Shown piece by piece: positions 16,601 to 62,803 of a stretch of 64,000 nucleotides of DNA. Numbering within the stretch: the stretch's first letter is position 1; every line of letters begins with the position of its first letter. The translations under genes and the position numbers were made by a program. The DNA is from Tubulanus polymorphus. Lineage: Eukaryota > Animalia > Nemertea. The DNA lies in assembly GCF_964204645.1 (NCBI RefSeq), contig NC_134027.1, forward strand, positions 16,888,560 through 16,952,559. Direction: 5' to 3'. The notes under the pieces are model-generated. The model ran no database searches, was not told the origin of the DNA, and worked only from the letters and a program-made list of their open reading frames with translations.

Positions 16601-16629
16601 ATTTTTAAAAAATAAATTAATAAAAATAA

Positions 16630-17560: not shown

Positions 17561-17577
17561 TTATATAACAAATAAAT

Positions 17578-19599: not shown

Positions 19600-19628
19600 T
19601 TATATATCGTTAATTTTAACTTTATATT

Positions 19629-20874: not shown

Positions 20875-20894
20875 TTATTTAACAAAAAAATTAA

Positions 20895-22318
20895 TTATCT
20901 ATTTTCTATTATTTTTTCTTGATATCTTTTTGATATCATATTCACTAACCCAAAAATAATAGCACTTACAACTGTAATTAAAAATAAAATAATATGTTCG
21001 GCAGCAAAGTTAATAATGTTTCCTGCAGATTTCAATATAAAACAAACAATTGATGCAATAATTCCTGGCAATGCTGCAGCAGATTTCTTTGATAGTTCCC
21101 ATAAATATTTTGCTAATTTCTTTAAACCATCTTTAACTTTATCTCGTATAGAATTATTATCATTCGGGGGTTTATCCGGTTTATTGGGAGTAGGAGTAGA
21201 TTTTAAAGCATTTGATATTGTTAGACCAATTGTTGTAAATAACATAGTTACAGCTGTTAGAATTGAAAGAATTGTTATTCCTAATTTAAATAATAATTTT
21301 ATTCTATCTTTTAATGATATCTTTAAAAATAACTTTTAATCTATTAATATTATAATCATATGATTTTAATAATAATTTAATTTCTTCTTTCTGTACTTCT
21401 AAATTATCTTTTAAATTACTAATTTCTTTTTCTAAACGTAATTCTTTTTGCCTATATTCTATTTTATCAATTAATTGATGATCTAAATCAGACTTTATTT
21501 GTTCTATTTCTTTATTTGCATTAGTTAATTCTTTTTCCAAATACATAATTTTTTGATCTCTTATACTTTTATTATGTGCAATTTTATCAGCTTCATTTCT
21601 TATACTAATAATTTCTCTAATTGCTTCATCAGAAAATATATTTAAATCTTCTAATTGTTGATCTGTTGCATCAATTAATCCATTCGGTAAAAGTTTTTCA
21701 ATTGAAACTTTATTTGATTTAAGTTTACTAGTTTTGGAAGTTATATTCTGTTCAGATGTTGTTTCTGTTTCTGATTTCTTTTTGATTATTTCAAATAATT
21801 CCTTAATTCTTTGTTTAAATACGTCTATATCATTATCAGTTAATTCTTGTTTTATAACATCAGTTATTACATTACTATTACTAATTCTTTTAATTCTATC
21901 TGGATCTAATTTTCTCAAAGTTAATTTTGTTATTATTTTTTTTATAAGTGATATCAATATAATAATCATCTTTCAAACGATAATAACATTTACCATTATC
22001 TAAAAATTTTAATTGATCTGCTAAAAGTCCAACGTCTTCATCATTTATGTTAAGTTTAGATTTTTCAATTAAATCTTCTAATTTAGGTATTTTGTTTAAA
22101 TTATCTAAATCTTGTTTTACTAAACCTGGGTCTAAATTTTCAGGATTTAATTGTGATTCTGCATTTTTAATATAATCAGGCATATTTAAATTATTATTAT
22201 ATCCTGGCTCATTACCGTCATTAAAACTTGTTTCACTAAAATCAGGTTGTTGTTCATCAGTTATGCCAGGTTTATCAAAAGGATCCATTCCAATATCTTC
22301 TCCACCTTCTACATCCAT
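20895..22318 (-). pseudogene. Acidic/coiled-coil/TM protein, frameshifted
   Basis: ORFs 21896..22318, 21304..21969, 20895..21245. Confidence 0.75.
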
Positions 22319-22334
22319 TTATATAATAAAAAAA

Positions 22335-23636
22335 TTAAAATTTAAAATATAATATTCCTCCTATAACAATTCCTATACAAGTTAAAGCTAATTTAGTATT
22401 TTCATGTAATTTATTATCATTATCAGTTTTAATTATATCATGTTGAATATTATCAGTTTTAATATTTTCTGTAGTATTGTAATCTTTTATTTTGGAATCA
22501 TTATCCAATTTAATATTCTTAGTTTTAGTTTCTGTTGATTGAATATGTTTTTTATTTTTTTCACCTTCCATTAATTTTGGAGCAGTAATTATCTTTGTAT
22601 TTATATCATTCAATCCAAATGAATTATTTATTGTTGCAGTTTTAATTAGATTATTATAACCAATTATATTTCCCATCTTTAATACTAAATCATTAGAAAT
22701 AATTAATAGATTAGGGCCTATACAATAATTTAGTCTTACATGAGATTTATCTAAATAATTTTGATATCTTACAATGTTTTCTGGAATCGATCTATTTTTA
22801 TCATTATGAATGGAATCTTCAAATAATACTTTGAATTGTTTCTGCGCATCGAATGAAGTGTTATCATTTCCAATTATTGGGGATCTTGTTTCAACTTGTG
22901 CGCCTAAAAAACATATCAAATAAGTTCTAATAGATTGATTTATTCTTTGTATACCTGATTTTGTAAAACCTTCACCATTTTCTAAAATGAAATTAACCCA
23001 ACCATTATTATTATCAATTTTATAATTATGATAAGCTGAAATCCTATGCATATAATCAATTCTTTTTATTTCAAACTCTTCACCAACACCTTGCAATTTA
23101 CCATGCGCTCTAAAATCGGAATTAATATTTATATTAAATTCATTACATATTTTATAAAACTTAGATAGGTTAATATTATTATCCAATTCTTTACAATATT
23201 TAGACCCGGGTAAAGGACATTCTAATTCATTTAATATTATTCTGATTTGAAAATATGTGTGAAATCTAAATATTGTGTGAATTAATTTTAAATCAGAATA
23301 CTTCAAATTTTTATCTAAGTTATTTAAATGATCATTCCAACTAATTCCGCATCCTGTTGTTGCACAATAAACAGCAAAATCTAATTGGTTCTGCCAATAT
23401 TTCATATTAGATTTTACTTTATATATATGATATTCATCTCGAGTAAAAGTAACTTCATATGTATTAAATATATTTTCCATTTTAGAAATAAAAAACTGTG
23501 ATTCAGTAACATAAATTTCTAAATTAGTTAATGAATTTAAAACTACATTTTTATATGTAATATTTTTTTCTAAATCTATTGCAGTAATATTATATTTAAT
23601 TTATTTATTATATAGGAAAGCTTTTGGAAACCCCAT
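22335..23636 (-). CDS. Conserved ~433-aa protein (early stop near 23600)
   Basis: WQNQLDFAVYCATTGCGISW; C-terminal TM. Confidence 0.78.
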
Positions 23637-23652
23637 TTATATAATTAAAAAA

Positions 23653-24083
23653 TCAATAATTAACTAATTCTTTTAATAATTTATCTTGTTCTTCAACTGT
23701 TATATGGCCATTTCAACTTATTATATAATGTAGTGTATTCTTTAATTTATTGATTTCTTTTATATTAGTTTTAATTTTTTTTTAAATTACTTTTTATATT
23801 TAATTTTGAACTTATACCGGTTAAAACACTTGAACTTAATCCTAACACGCCAATTGATATAGCTAAAGGTGTTAATGGACTGAATATTGCTAGAAATGTT
23901 ATAACAGAACTAATTGTAACCACTTATAATCAAATAATATATAATTTTACTTTTTAAATATTTTTTCTCCTTTATCTTTAAGTCAATTTCAAATTCTAAT
24001 ATTTGTTTTTCTAAATATGTTTTTAATTTAGTTTTATTTATATCATGAGGAATAATATCAATACTATCAACTTTATCTTCCAT
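23653..24083 (-). pseudogene. Two-TM membrane protein, disrupted
   Basis: DNA homology to 378..812 and 50329..50761. Confidence 0.7.
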
Positions 24084-24102
24084 TTATTTAGAAAGAAAAT
24101 TA

Positions 24103-24525
24103 CTAATTAGTAAATTTATATGCTACAAATATAACAATAACTGTTCCACCTAAAATCCAAATTATTTCATATTTCTGTTGTTCTTTACTTGGGGTATAAT
24201 AATCTGATAATTTAGGTTTGTATAGATGTAATTTTTCTTTATTGGTTACTGCGTTATATAAACTCATTGCATCATCAACTGATTGAAAATCTCTATGTGA
24301 AATCTTCTGATCATATAATTCTTTATTGATGTAATCCATATAGTTTTGTCTCTTTTCTCTATATTCTTCAGCTGCTTTATTGTATTTCTCTAATGCTAAG
24401 TTATGTCTTTTTTGTTCTGTTAATGAACCATTTTTATCAATATGCTTAAATAAATAACCACCACCAGTAAATGCTAAAGCGTTAACAATTGCCGATCCTA
24501 TAATAGTTATAATTGCAGAAGCCAT
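24103..24525 (-). CDS. 140-aa protein with N- and C-terminal hydrophobic segments
   Basis: MASAIITIIGSAIVNALAFTGGGYLF...; three copies. Confidence 0.82.
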   Translation of the reverse strand: MASAIITIIGSAIVNALAFTGGGYLFKHIDKNGSLTEQKRHNLALEKYNKAAEEYREKRQNYMDYINKELYDQKISHRDFQSVDDAMSLYNAVTNKEKLHLYKPKLSDYYTPSKEQQKYEIIWILGGTVIVIFVAYKFTN

Positions 24526-24549
24526 TTATTTAACAAAAAAATTATGCAT

Positions 24550-24771
24550 TTATATGGGAGGAATATATTTTTGTTTTTCTAAATAATCAATAGTTAAATT
24601 AGATAAAGTAACTGCTAATGTTAATTTTAAAATATCATTTATATCAAATCTATCAACATTAACACTTCCCATTTTGAATACTTTTTTTAATACCATTGAA
24701 TAACCAACAGTTCCAACTGATAGTAATGCGCCATTATATATTCCAGTTATTATCCACTTATTATCACTCAT
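24550..24771 (-). CDS. 73-aa hydrophobic protein
   Basis: Nearly identical to 51229..51450; T-run+TAAATG start. Confidence 0.78.
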   Translation of the reverse strand: MSDNKWIITGIYNGALLSVGTVGYSMVLKKVFKMGSVNVDRFDINDILKLTLAVTLSNLTIDYLEKQKYIPPI

Positions 24772-24813
24772 TTATTAATCAAAAAAATTACTATCTTCAA
24801 AATATTTAGTTAT

Positions 24814-25131
24814 CTAAGTGATGATTAATTTAACATTTATTTCATTACTACTTTTATGATTATCATATATTTCGGTTAATATGTTTTTAATATCATCTAT
24901 GATAAAATCTTCATCTAATTCATAAAATCTTAAAGATTCTCTAATTAAATTAGTAATCTTTTCTACATTTAAAGTTTCTTTATCTATTGTTGTTTCATAC
25001 TCAAATGTTGTTTCATTAGAAAATGCAATATTTTTGATATGTGTAATTACTTCATTAATGTTAAATTTCATTTCTTTCTCCCGTTTAAAATCAAATCCAA
25101 AACATATACTCGGTCCAACAGTTATATTCAT
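24814..25131 (-). CDS. Hypothetical protein
   Basis: Ortholog of 51451..51807. Confidence 0.75.
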   Translation of the reverse strand: MNITVGPSICFGFDFKREKEMKFNINEVITHIKNIAFSNETTFEYETTIDKETLNVEKITNLIRESLRFYELDEDFIIDDIKNILTEIYDNHKSSNEINVKLIIT

Positions 25132-25147
25132 TTATATAGTGAAAAAA

Positions 25148-25904
25148 TTACTCTTTACATCTTATAACTAATTCATAAATTACAGAAAAGTTATTCAAAT
25201 CAATTAAATAACCATTATGATTTCTTATTTCTAATTTAAAATTATTGAAATGTGGAATACAAGGTTTAAAATCACATTCAGTTAAATTATAATATATTTG
25301 CGTTCCAAATTGTTTAACATTTTTTAATGGTAAAATATTTAATATACTACAATTACAAATTGTATCTTTAGTTGCTTCAAATGTTTTTGGTGGGTCAATT
25401 AAATTGCAATAAATATAAAAATGTGTAAAAGGTATTAAGTTTGATCTACCTTCTGCGTATGCTGTAACAATATCTGGGTTAATTCCTAACAGTTTACCTA
25501 AAGGTTTTCTTACTGTAAATTTAAATTGTTCGTCATTAGCTAACCTAATCTTTATTTTATTAGAACTATCACTTTTTAAAATTCTAATACTAAATCCGGA
25601 ATCACTTCCTAATTTAGCTCGAGCTTTTCTATTAATTTCTTGTGCTGATGTATCTAAATTATATAATCCTGGTTTTAGATATAAAAAACCATTTATTCCT
25701 TTTTTTGTAAAAGATTGAAAAAATTAAATGTTCTAGACTTTTATCCGATATATTGTAAAATGAGTTACATAAACTTATATTTACTAATTTCAAATCAACA
25801 CAATTCTTAAATTCTCTATCTAATTGAACTATTAAATTATGTGATTTATAATTTTTAAGTTTTCTAGAATCAACAAATATTCTGTATTCTTTTAATTCTA
25901 CCAT
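25148..25904 (-). pseudogene. Minor capsid protein (penton), frameshifted
   Basis: Ortholog of 51824..52576. Confidence 0.72.
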
Positions 25905-25972
25905 TATTTATAACATAAAAAAATTACCGCTCATCACTAAAAATTAATTTTAATAAAAATTTTCCTAAATAA

Positions 25973-26971
25973 ATGGATGAGAAGATAGCATGCAAAATTT
26001 GTGGTGAACTTCTAAGAAAAAGTAATATGGCTCGACATATGAAAAAACATGAAGAAAATTATAAACCCCCTAAACTAAACTGTCCAAAATGTAATAAATT
26101 ATTCTCAAGAAATTATGTTAAAAAACATTCAGAGAAGTGTAAAATTAATGGTGCAACGGCTAATGTTGATAGTAATGAAAGTAATAGTAATTCTGTTGAA
26201 GTTGAACCTGAAATTATTTGGAAAAGACCTTTCTTATTCTATGACAAGGATAATATAAAAGATCATATCTGTGAGCCTTGTCAAGTAAAATATAGCCCTG
26301 AAAATATAGAAGATTGGGAGAATCATCAATTTCGTAAAGCACATATAGATAAAATTTCTAATAAATTTGAAACTGAATTCAATGAAAGAAAAGATAAATT
26401 ATTAGAAAAAATAAAATATGAGAAAACGTTACCAGATAATAAAGAAACAGTTGAAAAGTTAGAAAAACAATATAATGAATTAACAAGAAAAACATATTAT
26501 TGTATATATTGTAAATTGATTATTACAACAAGTAATTCAAATCTACATAATAGAACAATAAAACATAAAGAAAACGTAAGAAAATACCAAGAGCTTAATG
26601 AAGATCTATTACCAATAAATTATAAACAAAAATGCCCACAATGTAATTACGCGACCTTAAGACAAGAAGGTACTGTGTTATTTTGTAATGAATGTGGATG
26701 GCAAGAGAATTTATGGAGTGAAGAAAAAACTAGAAATTTTCTCATAGATCCAAAATTAAATTATCTAGATGAAATTTTTAAAATATTTTCTATAGAAGAT
26801 CATACACCAGAATATATGCAATGGCTTGAAAAAATTAAAATGATAGAAAATAAAAATGGTGAAATAACTAAAAAAGATATTATAAAAACAATTATTCCGT
26901 CAACATTTAACACAAAAGAAAAGAAAATGTATTTATATTTATTATTTAACGATTATTATGAAAAACCTTAA
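25973..26971 (+). CDS. Multi-zinc-finger protein
   Basis: CKIC..HMKKH, CPKC..HSEKC, CEPC..HQFRKAH, CIYC..HNRTIKH, CPQC..CNEC. Confidence 0.8.
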   Translation: MDEKIACKICGELLRKSNMARHMKKHEENYKPPKLNCPKCNKLFSRNYVKKHSEKCKINGATANVDSNESNSNSVEVEPEIIWKRPFLFYDKDNIKDHICEPCQVKYSPENIEDWENHQFRKAHIDKISNKFETEFNERKDKLLEKIKYEKTLPDNKETVEKLEKQYNELTRKTYYCIYCKLIITTSNSNLHNRTIKHKENVRKYQELNEDLLPINYKQKCPQCNYATLRQEGTVLFCNECGWQENLWSEEKTRNFLIDPKLNYLDEIFKIFSIEDHTPEYMQWLEKIKMIENKNGEITKKDIIKTIIPSTFNTKEKKMYLYLLFNDYYEKP

Positions 26972-27290
26972 ATTAACAGAAGAAGATATGAAAAATATTA
27001 AAAAAATATTCAAACAAATATTAATGTATCATTTGGAAAATAGAATAACAGATTCAATAAATTATGAATTCTTTTTAAATAAGATTGTAAATTATTTAAA
27101 CATAGATATTATAATTCCATTTGACGAATTAACAAACAAAAAGATACAAAGAGAGCGAGATAAAATGTGGAACAAGATAGAACTTTATTTAAATGAGAAA
27201 AAAGAAATGGAAGAAGAAACTAAACAATTAAATGAAAATGAAGAAGCCAATAGTGATTTCGAGTATGATGATATTGATTTTATGTTTTAA
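26958..27290 (+). CDS. Hypothetical protein with acidic tail
   Basis: 110-aa ORF overlapping upstream stop and convergent with pPolB. Confidence 0.6.
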   Translation: MKNLKLTEEDMKNIKKIFKQILMYHLENRITDSINYEFFLNKIVNYLNIDIIIPFDELTNKKIQRERDKMWNKIELYLNEKKEMEEETKQLNENEEANSDFEYDDIDFMF

Positions 27291-30200
27291 TGACCATAAG
27301 GTAATGTTTTTATACCATCATCTAAAATATGCCTTTTATCATCAAATTCAAACTAGTTTTTTCAACTTCATTAATGTACATCTCGTGATCTTCTGATCTT
27401 AAACAATTCATTTTGTGTTTCATTACAATTGAGTTATATAAACACTTTATATAATCTTGAAATTCTATATGTTTATCAACCACATGTTTTGTTATTCCTT
27501 TTAACTTTTTAGCTTCATGATCTTTTGTTCTATAACTATACATTTTACTTCTTATCCCAAGAAATTCAATCATTTCATCACCCCCTAATTCATCTTTAAA
27601 CTTACCAGGAATCTTTTTATTATCATTGCTAAATAGTTCATGATCTTTGGGATAATTGCTAAAATCAAAATGATGTTTTAATGTTTTTAAGTCTTTTGTT
27701 ATGTCATTTGTTTTGATTTTTAGTATGTACGCATCCGTATTTTTTGGATTAATGGGAACCAAGAATTGAATGTTCCATCATCTGTTGATAAATCATAAAC
27801 ATAGTCAGTTGGGTTAGATATTTCAAATAAATCTTTAACTTCTTCAGTTAAATCTTTTTCTACATGCCTTAAATTAAAACAATTTGGTTTAGATTTAATC
27901 AACCCAATATTCATATTGAAGCCTAATGAATTGCATAATATATTCAATCCTGATATAGCAGCTTTTCCTTTTTGAGCTAAAGATATTGTTTTGCGGTTTT
28001 TGAAACTTTTAGTACCATCTGCTGCGTAGAATCCAACGAAGAACCATTTTCTTAAATTATTATTTGCATTTAATACATAATCTGGAACTATCTTTTCTTT
28101 AGTTGAAGTATTACTTTTCACTATTGCATGAATATAGAATTCATCATTATATTCTATAGCAAAATCTTTAGGATTATTTACAAGTATTCTATAAACTGCT
28201 GATGATTTCATAACATCCATGATTCTAAATGTTTTATGTGAATAAACTTCTTCACAGAATTTCTTAATTCTTTCTAATAATTTCAAGTCTTGATTGCATA
28301 AATACCAACAATATTTATTACCCCAAACATAATTATACACACCTGCTGAACCATCTCCCATGAAAAATCCTTTGATAAAATATTCTTTTTCTTCTAATGT
28401 TTCGGGTTCTATATTATAAATATTATCAATAATTTCATCAAATGACATATGATTCATTCTTTGGAAAAATCTTTTATGTAATAATTCATCTCCAATTTTT
28501 ATATCAGTTGGTTTTATTTCATCGCCATTTCGTTTAATTAAACTATGATCTTCTGTAACATCTACAAACCCTAATTTAGTTCTAACTCTATAGATTTTCT
28601 TTGTTTTATGCCTAATAATATTCTTTAATTTTTTCCATCCATTTCTTGTCCAAACATCCATTAAACCATTTATTTGTATTAATTCTTTTTCACCATATGA
28701 AATATAACATTCATTTTGTTTTGGAATTATTTCTGAAATTCTTCTTATCAATATTTTTATCATTAAATTTTAATAATATTGGGGTGTCAGCTGTTACAGA
28801 ATCAAAATATAATATTTCAATATGCTTTCCCCCAAAAAGTGGTTGTAAAACATTATAATAAAAATCATACATTAATAATTTTGATACTTCTAAAACAGTT
28901 GAACCAATGAATATAGGTTCATTAAATTTCATTGACGTTCTTTTTAATTCAACTGCTGTTAAATAATCTTCAAATCTTTTATTTCCTAAATGTCTAGGAC
29001 TTGATTGTAAATGTCTTAATCTTTCAGAATTATTTACTAATTCAATATCATTTCTATTTCTAATATTTTCACATGTTTTACCATAAAAACTATTATTCAT
29101 TAATTTGAAGAAATCTTTTTCAAAATCTGTTTTTGATATGGTTCTCTGTTGAGTATTAAAATCTATATATTTTTCTAACCACTTCGATTGATTAAATTCA
29201 ATGTATCTATGTACTTTCTTTAATTTCATTCCTTGTTTTAGATAAAATTTTAACATTCTATAATGAACAATATAATTGTATTTATTATTTTGAGTAAGTA
29301 TTAATTTTTCTGTAAAAACATGATCTTTCGGTTTTATTTTCTTCTGGTATTCACTTAAATAACTATCATCTACGGTTAAATGTTCTGGGCAATAAGGTAA
29401 GTTTCTTGTTTTAAACTTTATATTTTCAGGATATTCTAAATCAACTACAAAAAAATAACCAATTGGTGCTTCATCTTCTAAACTCATAATTGCGCTTTCC
29501 CAATTAGTTTTATCATCATTTTCAACTTCTGTTAATATAAAATTTTTATATGGTTGAGGTTGCATCATTGCCCAACCATATAAATTATTGGCGTCAATAT
29601 ATAATAATTTATATTCATCATTTGCTCTAAAATACCTATCTCCCATAACACCACTAATTCCACCTCTAATTGATTTTTCAAATAATAAAACCATATCTGG
29701 TTCTTTTAATAAATCTAATTCTACATTTGTATATTTTAAACCACATTGCCAGGTTAAACCAGGACTAGAGTAGCAATAACAAGGATCAACATTAAAATGA
29801 TTCAAATTAACTTCTCTAAATTTTTCAAATATGTCGGCCAATATCATTACATCTGATTTTAAATATAAATCAACTAATTCACCATGATTTTTCATCTTAA
29901 AATGGTTCCAAATATTTAATGTTCTATTAAACACTTCGTCTTTCACATACTCCTCTTTTAATTGATCATAAAATTGATCTTTTAATAATTCTGTTACATT
30001 AAAATCATTGTGTGTTTTATAAAATGAATAAGGAATTGCGCCTTTATATCTCAATAATTTAAAATCTTGGTCATTTGGATAATAATATCGAGTTATTATA
30101 AAATCATTATCAACTAAACTTTTTGATAAATTATCTAATGAACTTGCTAGAAATCTATAAGAATCTAAAAATCTAATGCAACCAAATTGAAATGAAATAT

Positions 30201-32343
30201 AATTTTCAGATGTTTTAGCTAATAGTTTAAAATCATATTTTCTTACATTTACACCATTCATAGCATTATATTCTTCTATTTCTTGATTAATTGCGCCCAA
30301 TTTTCCCGATAATTGTTTTATAATTAGATGGGTATCATAGCCTGATAAATTATGAAATAATATTGGTACGAAATTTACTTTTTTAGCTTGTAAATTGCAA
30401 TCTTCATGAGCAGCTCCACGATATTTTGAATTTAAATGATCATGATCTCTAACTTTTTTATCAAATGAATAAAAACGTTTTTCACAATAACAACAATGAG
30501 TTGCATAATTAAAATCAATTTCATCTTCTTTTGTCATAACTATTCTTTTATTTTTGTTTAATAAATTTGCAAAATCACTTTCTAATTCAATCATTTTATC
30601 ACAAAAATCATTAACTAGATTTTCACCTCTAAAAGAAATATATTGACTTTCATATAATTCAGGATAATTTGATTTTATATAAATTCCACAAGCAGCAGCT
30701 CTTTGATGAACTTTTTTAATTGTGTTTATAATTGGCGGGTCTTGTATTGTGTCTTCATTTAATTCATTTCCTTTATCCATTGATTTTAATAATTGCTTTT
30801 TGTTATATATTTCTTTTCTATCTTGATCAGTTAATTCTTTATTCAACGATTCAAAATCCCCATAAATTACAAATGGAACAATATTCTTAAATTTATGATT
30901 AGTAAATTTCAATTTATAATCTTGTTCTGTTGGCATTATTAATTTACAAAAATCTTTATTATCACATAATTCTTTATGTTTTAATAATGTATTCTCAGTC
31001 ATAAATTTAGATAAACATTTTCTACATAGATAAATTTTATTATGGTGATCACTTTCTGTTCTAAAGAATAAATCAATTTGTTTTAACCACATATAATGTT
31101 CATTTTCATCTTTTTTGTAATATAACAAATCTATAGCATTTTCATCATCATAATATTCTGTTAAATATAAAGCTTCCAATGTATAATCTTTAATATTTTC
31201 ACCTTTTGTCTTTTGTAATTGCATTAATTCAAATACATTTATTTTTAAATTATTAACTTTTTCTATTTTAGGAATCATTTTTATAGTTACTGGATATTGA
31301 TCAATTTTATATAATGTTTCATATTTCCAGTAATTTGTTATTCTACAAACATTTTCCTGTGTTGGATGTAAGCAACTAATAATTGACCATAGAAAACATT
31401 TATTATCTTCATTTTGAATATTTATTACTGCTTTTGTTGTAAATGGTAATTTAATATAAGATGATGCTTTAATATCCTTTTCTGTTGTAAAGTTTGAATC
31501 ATTTTTAAACATTTTATTACTTTTTGATGTTTTATTCCTTTTTGTATTGTAAACATTTAAATCTAAATATATAATTTCATTCAATGTTAAGCCAGAACCC
31601 TCAAAATATCTTTCTTCAATATGACGTTTAAATTCATTAAATATTTTTTCTAACTTCTCTTTTATTTGCGTTTTTGAAATCATTTCTTCATAGAGTGTTT
31701 GAATATTATAATCCATTTTTTCTTCTGACTTTATAAAACATACTTTCCCAGAGATACTAATTTTTGGATATTCAACATCTGTTATCAAATCTAGTATTTT
31801 TTCTATTATTTCAATAAATTTACTATAATCTTCTATTGTTGTACCTTCAAAAAATCTAAATATAATAGCTGCAGGACCAATTTTACTATGTAATGTTTCT
31901 AAAATTTCAATTGTATCTTTTATTTCTAGTGAATCAATGTAATTTCTAACATTTTCCATGTAAGGTTTATTTGAAATGCATTTAGTTTTTGAATTTGGTT
32001 TTTTTACTTTTTGAGGTTTATCGTTAAAATAATCTTTTCCTAAAACATTATTACTCAAATTTTGATGGTGTTTTTGTGATTCGAGATGTCTATTATAATT
32101 CCTTTTTACTATAAATTCATTACAAACTTCACATTTTATTTCATCCACATTCATATTTTCTAATCTTTCTTTTCTTTCATTGGAATTTTCTGGAGTTTCA
32201 AAATCTATTACATTTTTTATATGATTTGCAGTTTTTTCATGTCGTGTTTTATGAGATGTATCGATGTATTTTTTACAATATTGGCAATAATATTGATTTT
32301 TATTAACATTATTGTTTCCTGGCTGGTGTTCATTCTCCCCCAT
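27287..32343 (-). CDS. polB: Protein-primed family B DNA polymerase with N-terminal zinc fingers, containing an intein (frameshifts in and after the intein)
   Basis: FVIYGDFES, FHNLSGYD, YIDANNLYGWAM, KLMNNSFYGKT, YFD|TD; DHDH..CNL zinc motif. Confidence 0.95.
27739..28800 (-). mobile_element. Intein with LAGLIDADG homing endonuclease in pPolB motif C
   Basis: Block A SVTADTPILL, block B VTEDHSL, GFFMGDG and GFYAADG, block F YVYDLSTDDGTF, terminal KN followed by Thr. Confidence 0.92.
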
Positions 32344-32428
32344 TTATTAGGAAAAAAAAATACTTGTGGTGATGAGTGGTGTCTCGCCCTCTCGCCCTCT
32401 GATCTGAAAGCCTACTTTCCCAATTACT

Positions 32429-36878: not shown

Positions 36879-37369
36879 TTAAAATATATACGCGTTCTGG
36901 ACCGTATATGTCGGGATAGATCGACAATGTTCCGATGGCAGTGGATCGCTGTCATCTCTTCGGCAGTATGGACATTCGTAATGTCGTATGTTCTTTAAGT
37001 GTTTAATACACTTAACATGTATCTGCTTTCCGCAGCATGATGTCGGTGTGTCCACGCACACCTCCAAACACACGCAGCACGTAAGGTCGAGAAAAGATCC
37101 ACAAAATGTACACTGGTGGTGCTGCGAATGGTCGATTCCGCTGTAACAGTCATGACATATCGGCGCACGACAACACGGCATCTGATTTTGTGAAATGTGC
37201 AACGCACACCCTCTGCATACATCCGTCTCCCGGTTAAGCGCAGGAACCGAGCCGGTACATCCATCGCGGAAAACTGGATCAATGTGCCCTTCGAGCCCAA
37301 TGATTCTCATCATTGGGCACATGATTTCCGCCTGCTCGCTTTGGTCTTCCGCCGCGTTGTCGAAGCAGG
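36879..37369 (-). pseudogene. Multi-RING-finger protein, 3' part (split by copy C)
   Basis: CRGC..CCRAPICHDC..CTFC; CCVC..CCGKQIHVKC..CPYC. Confidence 0.75.
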
Positions 37370-38093
37370 AGTAATAGGGGTAATGGGCTTTCATACCAAA
37401 GGTCGAACGGTCGAGCTCATTAAAAAACAAAACATTAAAAGTAATTTAAACCAATAATATATTTTCATAATCGTGTGTATTTTATATTATAACTAAATAT
37501 TTATTCTAAGATATCAATAATTTAAAAAGCATATTGTATTAAATCAATTGGTCGCTCCACTTCGCTACCGCTCCGCTCCGCGACCAATTGATTTATTTAC
37601 AATACACAAATTCATATAATCAAATATATTCAAATAATAATAATAATTCTATTATTCAACTGAAATACACACGGTTATGAAAATATATTATAGTTTTAAA
37701 TTACTTTTAATATTTGTTTTTAATGAACTCGACCATTCAACCTTTGATATGAAAGCCCATTACCCCTATTACTCTTAAAATATTCATATAAATGAATAAC
37801 ATTTAAATTGACAGATTATTCAATATAAAAGTATATATTTACAACATTATTTCAATATTTATATTTGTGTGAGTTAGATGTTTAAACATTAAAAGTGTTA
37901 GTAAAGTGTGATTGAAATAATACATGATATAAATCATTGAACTTCTAAAATCAATTTAAAAAAAAAATTTAGTATTAAAATGGAAGCAAATAAGTACTAC
38001 TGTCCAACATGTAATATCAATGTAGATAAATCCCAAAAAGCAAGACACAATAAAACTAAAACACATTTAGAGAATGAATTGAAACTAGAATAT
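37370..38093. repeat. Left TIR of C with fold-back 37370-37773
   Basis: Reverse complement of 56887-57611; internal arms ~110 bp. Confidence 0.93.
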
Positions 38094-38183
38094 TTACAGT
38101 TATATTCAGAACAGTTAACAAAGGCAAAGAAATTTATTGAATTATGGAATAATGATCCAAATAATGAACAATACGTTGAGTAA
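37980..38183 (+). CDS. Small zinc-finger ORF (pPolB N-terminus + HNH C-terminus chimera)
   Basis: First 38 aa as in 56773..57000; tail LQLYSEQLTKAKKFI..NNEQYVE as in 39348..40016. Confidence 0.6.
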   Translation: MEANKYYCPTCNINVDKSQKARHNKTKTHLENELKLEYLQLYSEQLTKAKKFIELWNNDPNNEQYVE

Positions 38184-38317
38184 TTTGATATCAAGGATCC
38201 GATGTTTATACTAGAACATGATTCTATTTGAACCTATATACATTCTATGTAAAGAGCTATGTAATAAATCTATAAATTCACAGCTGTTACAGCCGTTACT
38301 ATGACGCCGAGACATTA

Positions 38318-38582: not shown

Positions 38583-39347
38583 ACTGTTTTTTGTAGTTAT
38601 TGGGGCTATTAAATATGAAACCTTTAGATATATTTAAGTGTATTTAGTATATCTTTTAGATGGCTAGAGTTGCCGCTAATATCTTTTAGATTAATGAAAC
38701 GCCATACGCATCAAGAAGTGATAGAGAAACTCAAGATACTCTTTCTGTACTCTTTCTGACTGAGGAATCAACAGCAATGGATATCAAACCAATAGAATCA
38801 CCAAAAGATCGAAGAAGAAATATAAGAATTTCAAAAACATTAAGACTCCAATGATTAAGTTTAACATTTGTTGATGTAGTTAAATATTTACCAGCAATTG
38901 AAAAAATGCTGGTAATTATAAATTGTATCTATAGAAATCAAATGATGTATTGGAAGAAATGACTGAACAACTTGTATAATGTATTGTGTAAATCTGTTTG
39001 GTGAATTTTTATGTTCAGTCGTTTCAATAATGATTCGTTTCAATTATGATTAGCGCATGCGCATTAAGCAAAAGCGCGCATGAATGCGCGGTTTACCTAA
39101 TGCGAACACGTTTAGATATTTCATGTCGGTTGTTTCTATTTACATAATGAATATATAATTATGATTAGCGCATTAAGCAAAAGCGCGCACGAATGCGCGG
39201 TTTTGCCCAGTTGTATGATTTAGATATAAAGGAATCGAAACTGACTTATCAAAAGCAGCGAGGAATGAAAAAGGATGACGTTGGTCGAAGAAATGGAAGA
39301 GGATTCTAAAATATTAACCAATTTAGTAAAAAAAATACGTATAATAA

Positions 39348-40016
39348 ATGGAACCAGAACAACCACAAACTATCAATATTACAAATAACACTGGTGGTGT
39401 TATAAATATATATTACAAGAAGTGTTCTAAGTGTGAATTAGATAAATTAGCTTTAACAGAATTTAGTAAGCGTAAGATTAGCAAAGATGGTTTTCAATAT
39501 TGCTGTAAAACTTGCACTAAACTATACACCAAACAATACCGAGAAGCTTATAATGATTATATGACAGAATATATGAGAGAAAGATATCAAATAGATCTTA
39601 ATTATAGATTGAAACAATGCTCAAGATCTAGATTAACACAATTATTCAACAAAGAAACACATTCAGAAACACTATCTAATCTATTGGGTTGTTCAGATGA
39701 ATTTCTCAAATCATGGATTATATTTCAATTCGATGATAAAATGAACATAGATAATTATGGGGATTATTACCATATTGATCATACGTTACCGATTTCTAAA
39801 TTTAACATGAATGATGAATACAATAAAAAACTTATTTGGAATTGGAAGAATTTAAGACCTTTAGAAAAGAAGGAAAACATAATTAAATCTAATAAACTAG
39901 ATTTACAGTTATATTTAGAACAGTTAACAAAGGCAAAGAAATTTATTGATCAATGGAACAATGATCCAAATAATGAACAATACGTTGAGGAATTTGATAT
40001 CAAGGATCCGAAATGA
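39348..40016 (+). CDS. HNH endonuclease with N-terminal zinc ribbon
   Basis: KKCSKC..CCKTC; HIDHTLPISKF..NLRPLEKKENIIKSNK. Confidence 0.88.
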   Translation: MEPEQPQTINITNNTGGVINIYYKKCSKCELDKLALTEFSKRKISKDGFQYCCKTCTKLYTKQYREAYNDYMTEYMRERYQIDLNYRLKQCSRSRLTQLFNKETHSETLSNLLGCSDEFLKSWIIFQFDDKMNIDNYGDYYHIDHTLPISKFNMNDEYNKKLIWNWKNLRPLEKKENIIKSNKLDLQLYLEQLTKAKKFIDQWNNDPNNEQYVEEFDIKDPK

Positions 40017-40078
40017 CTTATCTGGACAGTTATAATTACTGCTCCTAATAGATAAACAAAAGTAGTGAGATATCAAAT
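39992..40078 (+). ncRNA. Conserved structured motif, copy in C (overlaps HNH stop)
   Basis: atttgatatc/gatatcaaat, ttatct/agataa, ggacagt/actgctcc. Confidence 0.55.
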
Positions 40079-44135: not shown

Positions 44136-44769
44136 TTATATAATAAATATTTATTAAAGTTAAAATTTTAATACATAACACTATCTAATTGTGAATTTAC
44201 AATATTTAATTGCGCGTCAGATATAATATAAATGTGCATTTTGAAATTTTTGATTCCTTTATTCTTTGTCATGAATAATTGTATTCCATCTTTAGTGTTT
44301 TGTAATTTTTTTCCAGAACCATGTAATGAATTATCCTCTGTTGTTCTAAAATCTAACCATAATGCATATTTATTACCGGTATAATAATCAATTTGATTAA
44401 TGTGACAATTTTCAGATGATTTTACTTTTTCATTCATAAAATGTTTTCTAATTTCTGGCCATTGATCAATCATTCTCATTCCTTGACAAAATATTTTATT
44501 TGCTATTCCTTCGATAGTTATTTCTACTTTTCTTAGGGAGAGAGTTCAAATATCCGAATAACCATAGAAGCGATAACATTAAAAACCTCATTTTCTAATG
44601 AGTAAATACAGTTTATTAACACGAACGTTTTCGGGATCATATCCCCTCATCAGGTGAAATACAAGTGAATCAAATGATTAAACTACAGGTTTATATACAA
44701 CATAAGTTACAAAATTACAAGTGCTAAATTCTAAGCTAATTGCAAACCAAGTATTTAATTACAAACTAA

Positions 44770-46469
44770 TTATTTGAATACATTTAGGATAAAGGATGAG
44801 CCGTTTTGAAATAATGGTTGATTTAAAGAGGGTCGTTGCGCTTTAATAAACAGGGCCTCCCTTATTTTACAGTCGAGATCAGATGAACCTTTGTCTAGAA
44901 TTTTGAATTTGTTGTTACTGAATTCCTGATCACAAGTGTGACAAATTGCGAGATGTTGTCCAATCGCAGAAGTCTTTGATCTGTGTTCCTTAATCCTGAT
45001 GGCCAAATGTCGTTTAGTTTTCCCAATATAGGAAGTGTTTATATCACATAAACAATTAAATTTATATATGACTTTAGCCTTCAGCGATTTAGGGGTAGCA
45101 CATTTCAAAGAGAAAAAATTCTTAATTTTGGTCGTAGTGAATGCACATTTCAAGTTGATTTCAAAATTCCTTTTAAAAAGATATTTTAATTTTCGGGCAA
45201 ATAGGATTGACGGGTTACCAATATACGGTAATGAAATGAATAGATCAATTCCATCTTCAACAGGTTTCGGTTGAGGTTCTGAGTTCTGTTTTGATTTCAA
45301 AAATCTATTAATACATTGATCGATGACATGAATAGGAAACGCATTAGATTTAAACAGATTTTTCAAGAAATTGATTTCTTCTGAAAAGATGGTCCAATCA
45401 CTGCAAATATTGTAGGCACGAAAAAGCATGGTATTGATGAGTCCTATTTTCCATTTATACGAACACATGGCGTTGAAGTTCAAAAGTAGGCCTGTGTTGG
45501 AAGCTTTCCTGTACACTCGAGATATAAAGTCACTACCGGTTTCTAACGGAATTTGTATTTCGGTATCGAGAAAAGGTAATAGATTAGGACCTAGTTCAAA
45601 AGTGAATTTAAGGTTAGAATGGAGGCGATTCAATTCTTCAAAAAAATAGTCTATAACTGGATACATTTCGAAATATGCCGAAAATATCGTCCACGTATCT
45701 CAGGTATAATGTCGGTTTGTAATTAGTTTTGGAGAGGAGCAAGTTTTCAAAATGGGCAAGACAAAAGTTCGCTAAGGTTGGGCCTAAGGGGCTGCCCATG
45801 GTGACCCCATCAACTTGCTTGAAAAATACGATCATTGTACATAAACAAACCCGAAGTTGCGATTTTAAGTAATTCTTTGAATGTAGCCTGATCATATGTA
45901 GGTTTAGAGTCGGAAGCATATATATAATCGGAAACTATATCAATGGTTTCTTTCAATGGAACATTAGTGAAAAGTGACTCTACATCAAAACTTATTAGAA
46001 TATCAGAAGGTTTAAAAACGAATTGTTTCAGTTTTTTAAGGAACTCCCAAGTGCTATTTAACATGAATTTAGACGGTATATGTGGTTTCATGATTTTATC
46101 GAGATATTTGGCCAGGTTATATTCAGCAGTGTCGATCATTGATACAACGGGTCGAAATGGAAAGTTATCTTTATGCACTTTGCACAAACCATATAATTTA
46201 CCAGGTTGGCTACCGCTTGGGTAGATAGAATCAAATATTTCTGAACTTACATACTGTTTCACATGTTTTCTCAGAAATCCGCAGATTTTGGTTTCATTAG
46301 ATATGACAGGGTGATTCTTTCTCACATTTTTGATTTCAGTAAATTTACTTTTATCAAATACAATTTTATCTAATTTATCGAAATATTCGTTAGAGTCCAA
46401 AATAACAATGCCGTTGCCTTTGTCAAATGAGCAGATCTTAATGTCCTTGTTTTTCCTCAAGTGTGACAA
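44770..46469 (-). pseudogene. Penelope reverse transcriptase and GIY-YIG endonuclease, frameshifted
   Basis: YGLCKVHK..RPVVS, SFDVESLFTNVP, MGSPLGP, RYVDD, VIY..YIGKT.R...R.KEH, REALFI..PSLN. Confidence 0.93.
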
Positions 46470-46757
46470 ACTGTCACACTTGTGATCAGGAATTCAGTAA
46501 CAACAAATTCAAAATTCTAGACAAAGGTTCATCTGATCTCGACTGTAAAATTAGGGAGGCCCTGTTTATTAAAGCGCAACGACCCTCTTTAAATCAACAA
46601 TTATTTCAAAACGGCTCATCCTTTATCCTAAATGTATTCAAATAATTAGTTTGTAATTAAATACTTGGTTTGCAATTAGCTTAGAATTTAGCACTTGTAA
46701 TTTTGTAACTTATGTTGTATATAAACCTGTAGTTTAATCATTTGATTCACTTGTATT

Positions 46758-46796
46758 TCACCTGATGAGGGGATATGATCCCGAAAACGTTCGTGT
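46758..46796 (+). ncRNA. Minimal hammerhead ribozyme in Penelope pLTR (second copy at ~44620-44657, minus strand)
   Basis: cac-CTGATGA-ggggatatgatccc-GAAA-acgt-TC-gtg. Confidence 0.75.
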
Positions 46797-47779
46797 TAAT
46801 AAACTGTATTTACTCATTAGAAAATGAGGTTTTTAATGTTATCGCTTCTATGGTTATTCGGATATTTCTACTTTTGTTATTTCAGGATTATAATAATTAT
46901 CAACATTTATTGCGCCATTAGTATATGTTGCAATGGTAAAAAATATTAATATACCTTTAATAGATCTTCTTGGGAAGTTAATATTCTCATTAATAATTTC
47001 ATCATTTGCATTAATAGTTACAGTTTTGAATTTATCAATATAATCATATAATAATGAAAATCCTTGATTGTATTGAGTTTGAATTATACTTGAAATATTT
47101 TCATCAGTTACTGTATCATATTCTAAACATATATTCGATAATTTATAACTCATATCTTTAACAACGCTAGATAATACAATTTCATTTACAGGAGCAAATG
47201 TTATCTCGAATATAACGTCTTCTTGAATTACATATTTATATAAAGGTGCATTATTATTTATCAATTCAAAGTCTAATGGAATTTTATATTTGCTTCCATA
47301 AATCTTTTTTATCAAATTATCTGCGGTACGAGTTACTATTGCGTCATTAGCTCCTGATATTAACTTATTATGGTTTTCCGATTGAATGCCCTGAAATATC
47401 ATATTATTTCTATTTTCTTTAGTTAACCATAAATCTTTATAATGCATGAATAAATTATAATCATCTAATGAGAAAACTGTTTCTGGACCAATCTTTATTG
47501 TTAACTTTTTAATCAAATATCTTCCAACATTATCAACAACATAATTATTATTATTACCGATTACTTTTATATCAGCTGATAAGTAAATACTATTTGGAAC
47601 ATAAAAAGTATTTTGTGTTAATCGAGATATTCTAACATATAAAGTTTCATCAGCATTAATATTAGAAGGGTTATTAGTAATTATATGAGGTGATCTTTCT
47701 GCTTTAATAGCATTAGATATTCTATGATTCTTAGAAGGATTGATATAACTCCCACTCATTTATTTAACAAAAAAATTAA

Positions 47780-52976: not shown

Positions 52977-55900
52977 TTAACACGTTAGAATTCTTTTCAT
53001 TATCTCGTCCTCTTTTGTTTCTTCTCTTTTAAATTTTAAGTATTCATCTAAATTGCAACCATAAGCAAATGTATGAATTCCATCATCTAAAATATATCTT
53101 TTATCATCAAATGGGTTTAGACTTATCTTTTCAATTTCTTCAATAAACATTTCATGATCTTCAGATCTTAAACATCTCATCTTATGTTTTCTAACTTCTT
53201 TTTTGAATATACAATTGATGTAATCTTTGAAATGAATATTCTTTTCTACTACACTTTTGGTTATTCCTTTTAACTTTGTAGCTTCATGTTCTTTAGTTTT
53301 ATATGAATACATTTTAGATCTAATACCAATGAATTCAATCATTTCTTCACCAACTAATTCATCTTTGAATTTACCGGGAACTTTTTTATTATCATTGCTA
53401 AACAATTCATGATTTTTAGGATAATTACTGAAATCAAAATGATGTTTTAATGTTTTTAAATCATCATTTATGTTATCAGTTTTTATCTTTAATATGTAAG
53501 AATCGGTATCAAAATATAGGATTTCTATATGTTTTTCTCCAAAAAGTGGTTGTAATATATTATAATAGAATTCATACATTAGTAATTTTGATAATTCTAA
53601 AACTGAAGCGCCAACATAGATTGGTTTATTAAATTTCATTGATGTTCTTCTCATCTTAACTGCGGCTAAATTTTCATCAAATATTCTGTTACCAATGAAC
53701 TTAGGATATGTTTGTAAATGTCTAATTCTTTTACCATTACTGACTAACTCAATATCATTTCTATTTCTAATATTTTCACAAGTCTTACCATAGAATGCAT
53801 TATTCATTAACTTGAAGAAATCTTTCTCGAAATCAGTTTTAGCTTTAGTTCTCTGTTTGGTGTTAAAATCTATATATTTTTCTAACCACTTAGATTGGCT
53901 GAATGAAATATATCTATGTACTTTTTTTAGAACCATTCCTTGTTTTAGATAAAACTTCAACATTCTATAATGTACTACATAATTATATTTATCTTCTTGA
54001 GTTACCATTAACTTTTCTGTATGAATATGATTTTCGGGTTTAATTCTTTTTTGGTAATTTGATAATTCTTCATGAGTTACAGTTTTATGTTCTGGACAGT
54101 ATGCTAGATTTCTAGATTTAAATTTTTTATCTTCAGGATATTCTAAATCTACAACAAAGAAGTAACCAGTATCTGAATCATCTGCAATATCTAGGATTCT
54201 TTTCTTCCAATCAAATTTATCATTATTTTCATTCTGTAAAACTTCAGTTAATTCAAATACTCCATAAGGTTGTGGTTCCATCATTGCCCAACCATACAAA
54301 TTATTTGCATCTATATATAATAACTTATATCCGGGGTTATCATTTACATTGAAATATCTATCACCTAATACACCTGAAACTCCTGCTCTTATAGATTTTT
54401 CAAATAATAGTAATTGATCTATATTTGTTAACAAATCCATTTTTATATCTGTAAATTTTAATCCACAATCCCATGTTAATCCTGGTGATGAATAACAATG
54501 ACAAGGATCAATATTGAAATATTTTAGGTTTACATCTCTAAACCTTTCGAATATATCGGTTAATGATAATACATCTGATTTTAAATATAAATCTACTAAT
54601 TGCCCATGATTTTCTATTTTGAAATGATTCCAAATATTCAATGTTCTATTATATACTTCATCTTTAACATATTCATTTTTTAATTCATCATAGAATTGTT
54701 CTTTCAATAATTCAGTTATGTTAAAATCATTATGATTTTTATAGAAAGAATATGGAATTGCTCCTTTATATCTCATTAATTGAAAATCATCATTATTTGG
54801 GTAGTGCTGCTTTAATATTTTTAATTCATCATCAACTAATGATTTTGATAAGTTATCTAATGAACTGTTTAAAAATCTATATGAATCTATAAATCTTAGA
54901 CACCCAAATTGGAATGATATATAATTCTCAGATGTTTTAGCTAACATTCTAAATTTATAAGTTGGTATTTTATCTTTTGATCTATTTGAATTTAATCTTT
55001 CTATTTCATTATTAATTTCTTCTATTTATGGCATAACTGTTTGATAAATAAATGCGCATCATATCCAGATAGATTATGAAATATAACTGGTACAAAGTTA
55101 ATTTTCTTAGCTTGTAAGTTACAATTCTCATGTGCGGCGCCTCTGAACTTTCCATTCAAATGATCATGGTCTCTTACTTTTTTATCTTTATAATTTAATA
55201 TCTTTTCACAATAATAACATTTACCTGCTAACACAAATTCTTCTTTATCTTTTTCTGTGATTATAATTTCTATATTTGTATTCAATAATTTACTAAATCT
55301 TATTTCATATTCAATTAATAAGTCACAAAAATGATTGATAACATTTTCATTTCTGTAATGATAATATTCACTTTCAATTAGTTCTGGATAATCAGATTTT
55401 ATATATAACCCGAAAGCAGCAGCTGATTGATGAATCTTTTTAATTGTATTTGTTTTTGGTGGTTCATCTGAAAAATTATTTTCATTAGAATTTAATTTCT
55501 TTCTTTTATAATATATTTCTTTTCTATCTTGATCAGTTAATTCTTTATTTAATGATTCAAAATCTCCATATATTACAAATGGTACTTTATTTTTGTAATC
55601 ATATTTTTTTAATTCTAATATTTTATCCTTTTCATTTGGTAAAACTAATTTACAATAATCATGATCTTCACATAATTGTTTATGATTTAATAATGTACTT
55701 TCATTACTGAATCTATGTAAACATTTTCTACAAAGATATATTTTATGGTGATCATTTTCTGATTTAAAAAATAAATCTATTTGTTTAATCCACATATAAT
55801 GATTCTCATAATATAATATATCTATAACATCGTTTGAATCATAATCTTTTGATAGGTATAAAGGATCTAATGTATAATGTTTTATATTGTTACCTTTTGT

Positions 55901-57000
55901 ATTTGGTAATTTGATTAAATCAAATACATTTATTCTTAAATTATTATCTCTTTCTATCTTTGGGACGTTTTTAATTCTAACAGGATACTTATCTATCTTA
56001 TAATTATTTTCAAATGGTTTATAATGAGTTAATCTAAAACTATGTGTAATATCTTCTGTTGGGTGTAAACAACTTATTATAGCCCATAGAAAACATTTAT
56101 CATCTTCATTTTGTATATTTATAACAGCATTAGTTTTAAATGGTAGTTTAATATAACTCGATGCTTCAATATCTGGTTCTTTATAATATAATACATTATT
56201 TTCATCTATTGGTTTTGATTTAGTTAACTTATTATATTTTGTGTTATAAACATGTAAAGTCATAAATATTATCTCATCAAATATTAAACTAGATCCTTCA
56301 AAATATTTCTCTTCTATTTTAGTTTTTACTTCATTATAACATTTATCTAATTTATGATCTATATGTTGTTTAGATATAATATGTTGTGAATGAGAATTTA
56401 TATTATATATTGGTTTATCTTCAGATTTTATGAATTTAACTTTAGAAGATATACTTATTTTAGGATATTCAACATCAGTTATTATTTTTATTATTTCTTT
56501 CATATTTTCTAAATGTTTTTTATTTTCTTCTAATGTTTTTCCTTTATGAAATTTAAACTCAATAGCTGCTGGACCAATATCACTTTTAAATGCTTCGGTT
56601 ATCTCTATATCTTTTTTATTATCTAATGAATTACATTCTTACATCTTCCATGTATGGTCTTTTATTGTTTAATTTATGCTTTTAATTGTCTTATGTTTCT
56701 TATCGTTATCATTATCAAAATAATCTTCACCTAAAATATCATTATTCTTATTTCTAATATGACTTTTAGATTTTAAATGTTCTTTATAATATCTTTATCA
56801 CTGAATGATTGATTACATGTATCACATTTGTATGTTTCTTTTTCATTCTTTAATTCATCTAATTTAGTTTCTAATATATCATCTTTATATTCTAGTTTCA
56901 ATTTATTCTCTAAATGTGTTTTAGTTTTATTGTGTCTTGCTTTTTGGGATTTATCTACAATGATATTACATGTTGGACAGTAGTACTTATTTCCTTCCAT
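52977..57000 (-). pseudogene. polB: Protein-primed PolB, intein-free, broken by stops/frameshifts
   Basis: FVIYGDFES, FHNLSGYD, YIDANNLYGWAM, KLMNNAFYGKT, YFDTDSY. Confidence 0.95.
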
Positions 57001-57611
57001 TTTAATACTAATTTTTCTTTTTTTAATTGATTTTAGAAGTTCAATGATTTATATCATGTATTATTTCAATCACACTTTACCAACACTTTTAATGTTTAAA
57101 CATCTAACTCACACAAATATAAATATTGAAATAATGTTGTAAATATATACTTTTATATTGAATAATCTGTCAATTTAAATGTTATTCATTTATATGAATA
57201 TTTTAAGAGTAATAGGGGTAATGGGCTTTCATATCAAATGTTGAATGGTCGAGTTCATTAAAAACAAATATTAAAAGTAATTTAAAACTATAATATATTT
57301 TCATAACCGTGTGTATTTCAGTTGAATAATAGAATTATTATTATTATTTGAATATATTTGATTATATGAATTTGTGTATTGTAAATAAATCAATTGGTCG
57401 CGGAGCGGAGCGGTAGCGAAGTGGAGCGACCAATTGATTTAATACAATATGCTTTTTAAATTATTGATATCTTAGAATAAATATTCAGTTATAATATAAA
57501 ATACACACGGTTATGAAAATATATTATAGTTTTAAATTACTTTTAATGTTTTGTTTTTTAATGAGCTCGACCTTTCGACCTTTGGTATGAAAGCCCATTA
57601 CCCCTATTACT
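56887..57611. repeat. Right TIR of C with fold-back 57208-57611
   Basis: Reverse complement of 37370-38093. Confidence 0.93.
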
Positions 57612-60964: not shown

Positions 60965-61187
60965 TAAATGAACATTATTTACATGAATTTCATATATTTT
61001 AAAATGAATTATATGTTAATCATAAAAGTGTGAGTAAAGTGTGAGTAAATAATTCATATTTTAACAGATTTCGAATAAAAATATAAGTAAAATAAATGGA
61101 TAATTAAAAGAATATAAAATTGTGAGCAAAGTGTGATTGAAATAATTCATATTTTAACATTGAATATTTATATTTGAATGAGTTTTA

Positions 61188-61841: not shown

Positions 61842-61928
61842 AGATTAAGCTGTATGAGTAATTGGAAAATTTCAAATATCATTACTCAAAAATAATAATT
61901 TAACTCTAAATATAAAAAAAAAGATATT

Positions 61929-62756: not shown

Positions 62757-62803
62757 TTTTGTAGTTAAAATATATAGAATAAATTAAATTAAAAGGTGCT
62801 GGT

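Follow-up and report, generated by a model that had tools for sequence, protein, structure and literature searches.

In plant viruses, 3′ CITEs (BTE, PTE, ISS and TED) are modular 3′-UTR structures of RNAs that lack a cap and a poly(A) tail; they are placed near the 5′ end by long-range pairing and are swapped between viruses. The loop E module is a smaller building block that occurs in 5S rRNA loop E, the 28S SRL and domain II of HCV-type IRESs, and a loop-E-like module is also used by the hairpin ribozyme. The element s2m has been described as highly conserved near viral 3′ ends in unrelated families, as probably acquired horizontally and as having an unknown function (PMC8515862, PMC10308922). 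The same papers mention invertebrate genomic xenologues of s2m, including insect loci with no sign of viral origin (PMC8515862), and report that s2m is dispensable for SARS-CoV-2 (PMC10308922).

Here we describe a structured RNA family of 80–95 nt that has no Rfam match and that links Polintons with aquabirnaviruses. Like s2m, it is a patchy 3′ element found in unrelated viral lineages and near the 3′ end, but s2m is a hairpin of 39–43 nt kept in primary sequence, whereas the motif described here contains a junction and is kept by covariation, and its link is that of dsDNA Polintons with a dsRNA virus. It resembles the plant-virus 3′ CITEs as a modular 3′-UTR structure on an RNA without cap and poly(A), for which an 11-bp terminal duplex just downstream of the motif would supply the long-range pairing that places it close to the 5′ end, and differs from them in that its carriers are animal-associated and include DNA elements. 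As in the hairpin ribozyme, its helices are joined by purine-rich internal loops, one of which would be loop-E-like. We found no description of the motif in the open-access literature, a search that leaves subscription papers and supplementary motif catalogues as places that could hold one; conserved regions near the ends of birnavirus coding regions have been noted (PMC4227794), but these are not the UTR motif described here.

Motif copies in a cluster of Polinton elements

The window, which is the whole stretch of 64,000 nt analysed here, is a cluster of Maverick/Polinton elements in the 268-Mb Tubulanus genome, as judged from TIRs, long shared blocks and a gene set in which we found a protein-primed polB, an rve integrase and an A32-type ATPase. 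Three copies of the motif, first picked out in a sequence-only reading, are present in these elements together with partial and decayed copies:

1–11672: Maverick/Polinton with motif copy 3; right end at 11672, left end beyond the window
9248–9326, minus strand: motif copy 3; the nearest sense ORF upstream ends about 830 nt earlier
10890–10934, minus strand: a further decayed remnant, preceding the paralogous endonuclease gene; 14 bits with the covariance model
15896–32428: Maverick/Polinton with motif copy 2; 68-bp TIRs, pPolB and an intein/LAGLIDADG region
16630–16707, plus strand: motif copy 2; P3b shorter; about 30 nt past the end of a small sense gene
37370–57611: Maverick/Polinton with motif copy 1; TIRs at 37370–38093 and 56887–57611, 98% alike; rve integrase and A32-type ATPase
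38183–38202, plus strand: motif 5′ half only, behind a small zinc-finger-like ORF adjoining the TIR
39229–39262, plus strand: decayed motif remnant with the apical arm missing, upstream of the endonuclease gene
39348–40016, plus strand: Endonuclease VII/HNH-like ORF, 222 aa (PHROGs phrog_1035, E = 2e-14)
39992–40078, plus strand: motif copy 1, with P1 at 39992–40001/40069–40078
40002–40017, plus strand: 5′ loop strand of copy 1
40018–40023/40050–40055, plus strand: P2 of copy 1
40024–40026/40043–40045, plus strand: P3a of copy 1, with the bulged C at 40042
40027–40030/40038–40041, plus strand: P3b of copy 1; P4 absent, with a 4-nt linker instead
40056–40068, plus strand: 3′ loop strand of copy 1

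The compensatory changes in the outer and inner stems and the bulged C that had been described for these copies are borne out, and the two loop strands are identical across all three; the window contains exactly three instances of the 12-nt 5′ loop strand. The identity of the loop strands agrees with the earlier claim that AG(G/A)ATCC is invariant, but the G/A base proved free (A, G, T or C) in a wider set of copies. Each window copy folds as a long interrupted hairpin, with sense-strand z-scores of −2.0, −2.1 and +0.2, and folding energy by itself is weak evidence for the structure of these copies.

The sequence-only reading had also placed every copy at the 3′ end of a gene or cassette, in otherwise different contexts. 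Copies 1 and 2 do lie at gene ends, whereas copy 3 has no gene directly upstream. The stop codon of the Endonuclease VII/HNH-like ORF (40014–40016) is inside copy 1, and the small sense gene before copy 2, broken here, is intact and encodes 109 aa in genome loci L004, L015, L024 and L029. The difference in context was overstated: all three copies reside in related Polintons, and those at 40 kb and 9 kb have a common downstream flank (87% over 100 nt) with a 2.4-kb block beyond it that is 93% alike. The polymerase of the copy-1 element matches the pPolB of the neighbouring element. A coding 3′ end and the motif start are common to the endonuclease gene and the zinc-finger-like ORF (10890–11141 on the minus strand; 37980–38202 and 39894–40022 on the plus strand), which shows that the motif moves between genes together with part of the coding region.

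Several further features of the window accompany these elements. The polymerase region at 27720–32343 (minus strand) contains an intein with a LAGLIDADG domain, which here occupies a separate frame, and is 73% alike to the paralogous polymerase at 52977–56503. The element ends at 11348–11672, 37369–37774 and 57208–57611 are imperfect palindromes of 330–410 bp. A Penelope-like insertion (RT/GIY-YIG), bounded by inverted ends of 400 bp (99%), sits inside a Polinton at 44543–46872, and a long trinucleotide-type repeat tract (15568–15778) lies just left of the element end at 15896. At 61024–64000, an 830-bp inverted repeat pair (95%), which has short segments in common with the Polinton subterminal region, is possibly a small non-autonomous element.

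Fold, covariation and known RNA classes

From the outside in, the motif is composed of P1, a large internal loop, P2 (5–6 bp), P3a, a variable P3b and an optional P4. P3a pairs an invariant GGA with an invariant UCC and has a bulged C, replaced by A in one lineage, and P4, which is missing in half of the aligned copies, creates a three-way junction where present. The internal loop measures 16 × 13 nt: one side consists of four semi-variable nucleotides plus the 12-nt strand, and the opposite side of 13 nt terminates in an 8-nt strand. The structure first proposed had overlooked the middle stem (P2) as well as the optional fourth one. An anchor parse of 40 distinct copies, done with regular expressions and independently of the covariance model, gave the same helices P1, P2, P3 and optional P4. 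RNAalifold run on the raw MAFFT alignment recovered P1 alone, with the middle misaligned, and the anchor parse and a model-fitted alignment were used instead.

A covariance model built from four sequences outside the window (two from birnaviruses and two metagenomic) recovered the three window copies at 53–62 bits (E ≤ 4e-12), with the next-best window match at 14 bits. True copies scored 45–97 bits with this model, compared with at most 25 bits for chance pattern matches; the near-duplicates L033, L040, L070, L072 and L077 were left out of this scoring. In a 16-copy alignment, which was fitted to the proposed structure and includes relatives, so that its figures lean high, 94.5% of 311 cells were paired, compared with 32–46% in slid controls, and 17 of 21 pairs had changed on both sides. 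The covariation score in this alignment was 0.65 against 0.17 in shuffles, and none of the 500 shuffles attained it. With one row per lineage (nine rows), 12 of the 14 double-sided column pairs were pairs of the model; the two extra pairs were weaker (0.89) and clash with better ones. About 25 positions are invariant among these nine lineage representatives, and we found no convincing covarying pseudoknot among them, although a pseudoknot made of invariant bases would stay hidden in such a comparison.

In 3 of the 16 copies, energy minimization returns the model fold itself; in the others, the model fold lies 0.3–7 kcal/mol above the minimum, as would be expected if non-canonical pairs or a protein stabilize it. 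In all 16 copies GAA faces AGUA with a C–G closing pair and strands of fitting length, the signature of a loop-E/sarcin–ricin module in its predicted register; every position is invariant, so that the match is one of signature rather than of covarying pairs. This resemblance is to a building block only, which here would sit inside the longer invariant internal loop. Judged from these substitution patterns, the motif fold is under selection.

An Rfam scan, which had been proposed along with the sequence-only reading, gave no match in the window to any Rfam 15 family at the gathering threshold; at E ≤ 10, the only overlap across five motif loci was a 15-bit antisense chance match. Hammerhead ribozymes are recognized by CUGANGA and GAAA around stems I–III, and these cores occurred in 0/16 copies on either strand. 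The hairpin ribozyme has an N-GUC opposite AGAA plus a loop B strand; on the sense strand, GUC was found in 2/16 copies and the loop B strand in 0/16, with no loop A (AGAA opposite N-GUC between two flanking helices), and on the antisense strand GUC was found in 16/16, but with U-rich loops and no loop B strand. Among the nine lineage representatives we did not find the covarying pseudoknot of HDV-like, twister, pistol or xrRNA folds or a PTE-type pseudoknot. The BTE class is defined by a 17-nt core, which none of the 16 copies contains, and s2m gave no Rfam match and differs in length and topology.

Protein-recruiting and stabilizing elements gave a similar outcome. The eukaryotic SECIS requires GA opposite AUGA in a tandem G–A quartet; AUGA was present in 16/16 copies, but the facing strand was AC in 14, GU in 2 and GA in none. 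Loop strands were A/G-rich, with the U5 run of an ENE in 1/16. TENT4-recruiting elements have a CNGG(N) apical loop; a CNGGN string occurred in 13/16 copies, but it spans P2/P3 rather than a loop, and the apical loops are variable. Box C (RUGAUGA, which pairs with CUGA in box C/D elements) was found in 0/16, and the would-be 1b position, an invariant G behind a 3-nt bulge in a standard K-turn, varies among A, U, C and G, although a non-standard kink may exist next to P1. The earlier proposal of a conserved structured RNA at gene 3′ ends, outside the known ribozyme classes, is borne out and strengthened by these results.

Distribution and placement beyond the window

The motif is far more widespread than the three window copies first noted. 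An exact two-anchor pattern of the two invariant strands matched the genome 566 times and a reversed control 0 times, and a looser pattern gave 591 matches against 0; these counts come from exact patterns, not from the covariance model, and are lower bounds. At 36 of the 47 loci looked at, the flanks matched window elements within 500 nt of the masked motif. The remaining 11 carry a variant with the fourth stem, 10 of them behind a PC4-like gene, and one of the 11 has a weak protease-like match nearby. The decayed remnant without the apical arm had 132 genome matches, two of them in the window, and many genome loci with no nearby sense ORF are either decayed or have a long spacer as in copy 3.

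Wherever a gene adjoins, it is read in the same sense as the motif, and its stop codon lies 14–126 nt before the core or inside the motif. The distance from stop to core is 17 and 20 nt for VP1, 14 nt for both the ATPase and the presumed capsid gene, 46 nt for a 207-aa ORF, 37–41 nt for the small 109-aa ORF, 111–126 nt for the PC4-like gene and 30 nt for the endonuclease where its stop is not inside the motif. The ORF runs into the motif and stops there at 13 genome loci, as the endonuclease does in window copy 1. Carriage by different genes indicates that the motif is modular. The next co-directional gene sometimes begins 20–250 nt past it, and across 18 copies there was no consistent poly(A) signal or T-run downstream, a poly(A) hexamer lying within 45 nt in 6 of them.

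Some genome loci depart from this arrangement. Four of 30 genome copies (L006, L015, L027 and L030) contain a GC-rich insertion of 16–27 nt just 3′ of the motif core. The insertion interrupts P1 and would form an additional hairpin, and in L027 and L030 it is palindromic. At L009/L010 (G000:C1:14107675-14107752), a variant behind an HNH-like gene has the 3′ loop strand tandemly duplicated. A near-perfect palindrome of 5.3 kb (99.6–99.9%; L234:6217-10000 and L235:1-1528, G000:C7 near 11.96 Mb) has a PC4-like gene and the motif in each arm, and the locus also has a second, diverged PC4-like copy with only the motif 3′ half behind it; the palindrome may have arisen by resolution of a hairpin end.

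Of 10 pattern matches in metagenome contigs, four were true copies (L066, L067, L071 and L075). All four contigs are Polinton-like, with matches to an adenovirus-type or Ulp1-type protease and an A32/IVa2-like ATPase, and one of their proteins is 39% identical to a window protein. L066 and L071 encode presumed capsid proteins that are related to each other and have no detectable BLAST similarity to that of the window; none of the candidates matched Pfam or PHROGs, and the capsid label for all of them is putative. The motif occurs across Polinton groups with presumed capsids that lack BLAST similarity to one another. Phage records (n = 50,697) gave no match, and all five pattern matches in GTDB genomes were chance, in or overlapping long ORFs. 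Pattern-only matches were discarded as chance in 12/13, 6/10, 5/5 (the GTDB genomes), 2/4 and 20/21 cases, and in 119/120 among the matches listed from another pattern scan; the chance matches that were inspected lay in or overlapped long ORFs.

Viral contigs gave one exact match, which fell in a birnavirus, in the 3′ UTR of its VP1 segment (segment B of an aquabirnavirus, a genus of dsRNA viruses of fish). A second aquabirnavirus segment B, L063, whose protein is 95% identical, also carries the motif; these are named IPNV relatives. The motif is complete in L062 and L063, and only its start is present in the truncated records L064 and L065. The 59-nt 3′ UTR of segment A of the L063 virus lacks it, and the covariance model found no match in 10 other birna(-like) segment-B records, four of which are partial (L084, with a UTR of 32 nt, and L090–L092, which end in the ORF). 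Anchor-like words in L085 proved to be coding sequence. The segment-B 3′ UTRs of L087 (3099–3243) and L088 (3103–3250), each about 145 nt, are similar to each other and look structured; they are vaguely like the motif by eye, gave no covariance-model match and perhaps hold a different acquired element.

In L063, the motif lies 58 nt from the intact 3′ terminus of the linear dsRNA segment. An 11-bp duplex between the 5′ and 3′ UTRs begins 5–16 nt past the stop in four motif-free segments compared with 98 nt in L063, where the motif occupies the gap between the VP1 stop and the duplex; the truncated L062 and L089 have only 6-bp matches for this duplex. The approximately 85 extra nucleotides point to an insertion in the aquabirnavirus lineage. 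The motif would lie beside the 5′ end when the segment-B RNA circularises. A compensatory base-pair change in P2 distinguishes L062 from L063, and the motif is thus still under selection in the aquabirnavirus. The RNA-virus copy, together with 19 G–U against 9 A–C in the helices, argues for an RNA rather than a DNA element, and a DNA-level structure such as an origin or hairpin end was rejected in view of the RNA-virus copy and the sense bias.

Proposed function and origin

We consider it about an even chance that the motif is a protein-binding 3′-UTR enhancer of translation or stability that has been transferred horizontally. In a 2026 review, IPNV RNAs are described as lacking poly(A), segment A as having an IRES and mRNA-B as VPg-dependent and without an IRES, and the function of the 3′ UTR is called uninvestigated (PMC13120071). 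The motif is on exactly the segment that lacks an IRES. This placement, on an RNA without poly(A), and its retention by both Polintons and an RNA virus favour an enhancer, although the sign of the effect, boost or brake, can only be surmised. Aquabirnaviruses replicate in the cytoplasm, and with an RNA lacking poly(A), nuclear 3′-end processing cannot explain why the virus keeps the motif. That DNA elements of the nucleus and an RNA virus of the cytoplasm have both retained it instead suggests action on the mRNA in the cytoplasm through a shared host factor. Two points weigh against an enhancer: where the ORF stops inside the motif, entering ribosomes would unfold P1 together with one half of the loop, and most birnavirus segments do without the motif.

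As an enhancer, the motif would act in cis, with a conserved host protein bound to the mRNA that carries it. P1 and P2, the variable helices, would clamp a non-canonical helix, with GAA facing AGUA in a loop-E/sarcin–ricin register assigned by eye, and this module together with the invariant GGA/UCC-plus-bulge helix at the junction would form the protein-docking surface. In the birnavirus, the terminal duplex would hold this surface beside the VPg-linked 5′ end, in the manner of a plant-virus 3′ translation enhancer.

It is unlikely, though the best of the alternatives, that the motif is a compact exonuclease-blocking or end-protecting fold (xrRNA-like or a 3′-end shield) that leaves either small non-coding fragments or mRNAs with stable ends. 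A three-way junction, a 3′-UTR or intergenic site and presence on a non-polyadenylated viral RNA would suit such a fold, but xrRNAs need a pseudoknot and no covarying one was found, the U-rich internal loop of an ENE triple helix is missing, and P4, which makes the junction, is absent in half of the aligned copies.

The same protein-binding anatomy could serve a cis-acting repressor or decay element that lowers gene output, a reading that we rate below the protective fold. It would account for a motif that marks VP1, present at about 22 per virion according to the review (PMC13120071), rather than the structural segment, and that stands behind the endonuclease gene in this genome. It sits poorly with the copy behind the presumed major capsid gene of L071 (a putative annotation), where high output is expected.

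Doubtful in turn, and below the repressor in our ranking, is the function originally proposed, a small self-cleaving ribozyme of a new class or a 3′-end processing signal acting in cis. The density of invariant positions, about 25 in nine lineages, is that of catalytic RNAs; the hairpin ribozyme, too, has a loop-E-like module; and the location at gene ends, sometimes shortly ahead of a co-directional gene and with few poly(A) hexamers nearby, would fit cleavage. The viral copy tells against it: in L063 the motif is intact and the full 3′ terminus follows, and cleavage at least 58 nt from the end would strip that terminus and leave the plus strand useless as a template. Since self-cleavage would cut off the end from which the birnavirus replicates, an argument that combines established birnavirus biology with our own reasoning, we disfavour it, as do the missing hammerhead and hairpin cores on the sense strand (0/16), the lack of a covarying pseudoknot and the absence of an Rfam ribozyme match. 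A slow or regulated ribozyme is still conceivable, and if the motif does cleave it represents a new ribozyme class. The least likely reading is that of a selfish or near-neutral hitch-hiking module, an s2m-like passenger whose fold promotes its own capture and spread, which the patchy distribution, the 132 decayed remnants and half-copies in the genome and the reported dispensability of s2m (PMC10308922) would allow, but which is at odds with invariant loop strands, with helices that keep covarying across very distant carriers and within a virus genus, and with a placement tied to stop codons rather than random.

The enhancer reading has a bolder form, to which we lend tentative credence, well short of that given to an enhancer in general: that the motif belongs to a new class of 3′ translation enhancers, or substitutes for poly(A), in animal viruses, that it docks a universal host factor for translation or stability, and that it crossed virus realms in jumping from dsDNA Polintons to dsRNA aquabirnaviruses. 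If true, it would be an animal counterpart of the plant 3′ CITEs, would explain how a VP1 mRNA with neither IRES nor tail competes and would be sequence-level evidence of Polinton transcripts meeting RNA viruses in one cell; an increase in mRNA output without a poly(A) tail would in turn imply an unknown host pathway. The motif gives a concrete, testable structure to the 3′ UTR of IPNV segment B, implies selection on Polinton mRNAs in active lineages and is one of the rare signs that a DNA virus lineage and an RNA virus lineage have exchanged non-coding RNA. The virus would have gained the motif from a Polinton transcript through polymerase template switching inside an aquatic host common to both, and transfer from Polinton to virus is the likely direction, given five metazoan-type Polinton sources against a single virus genus.
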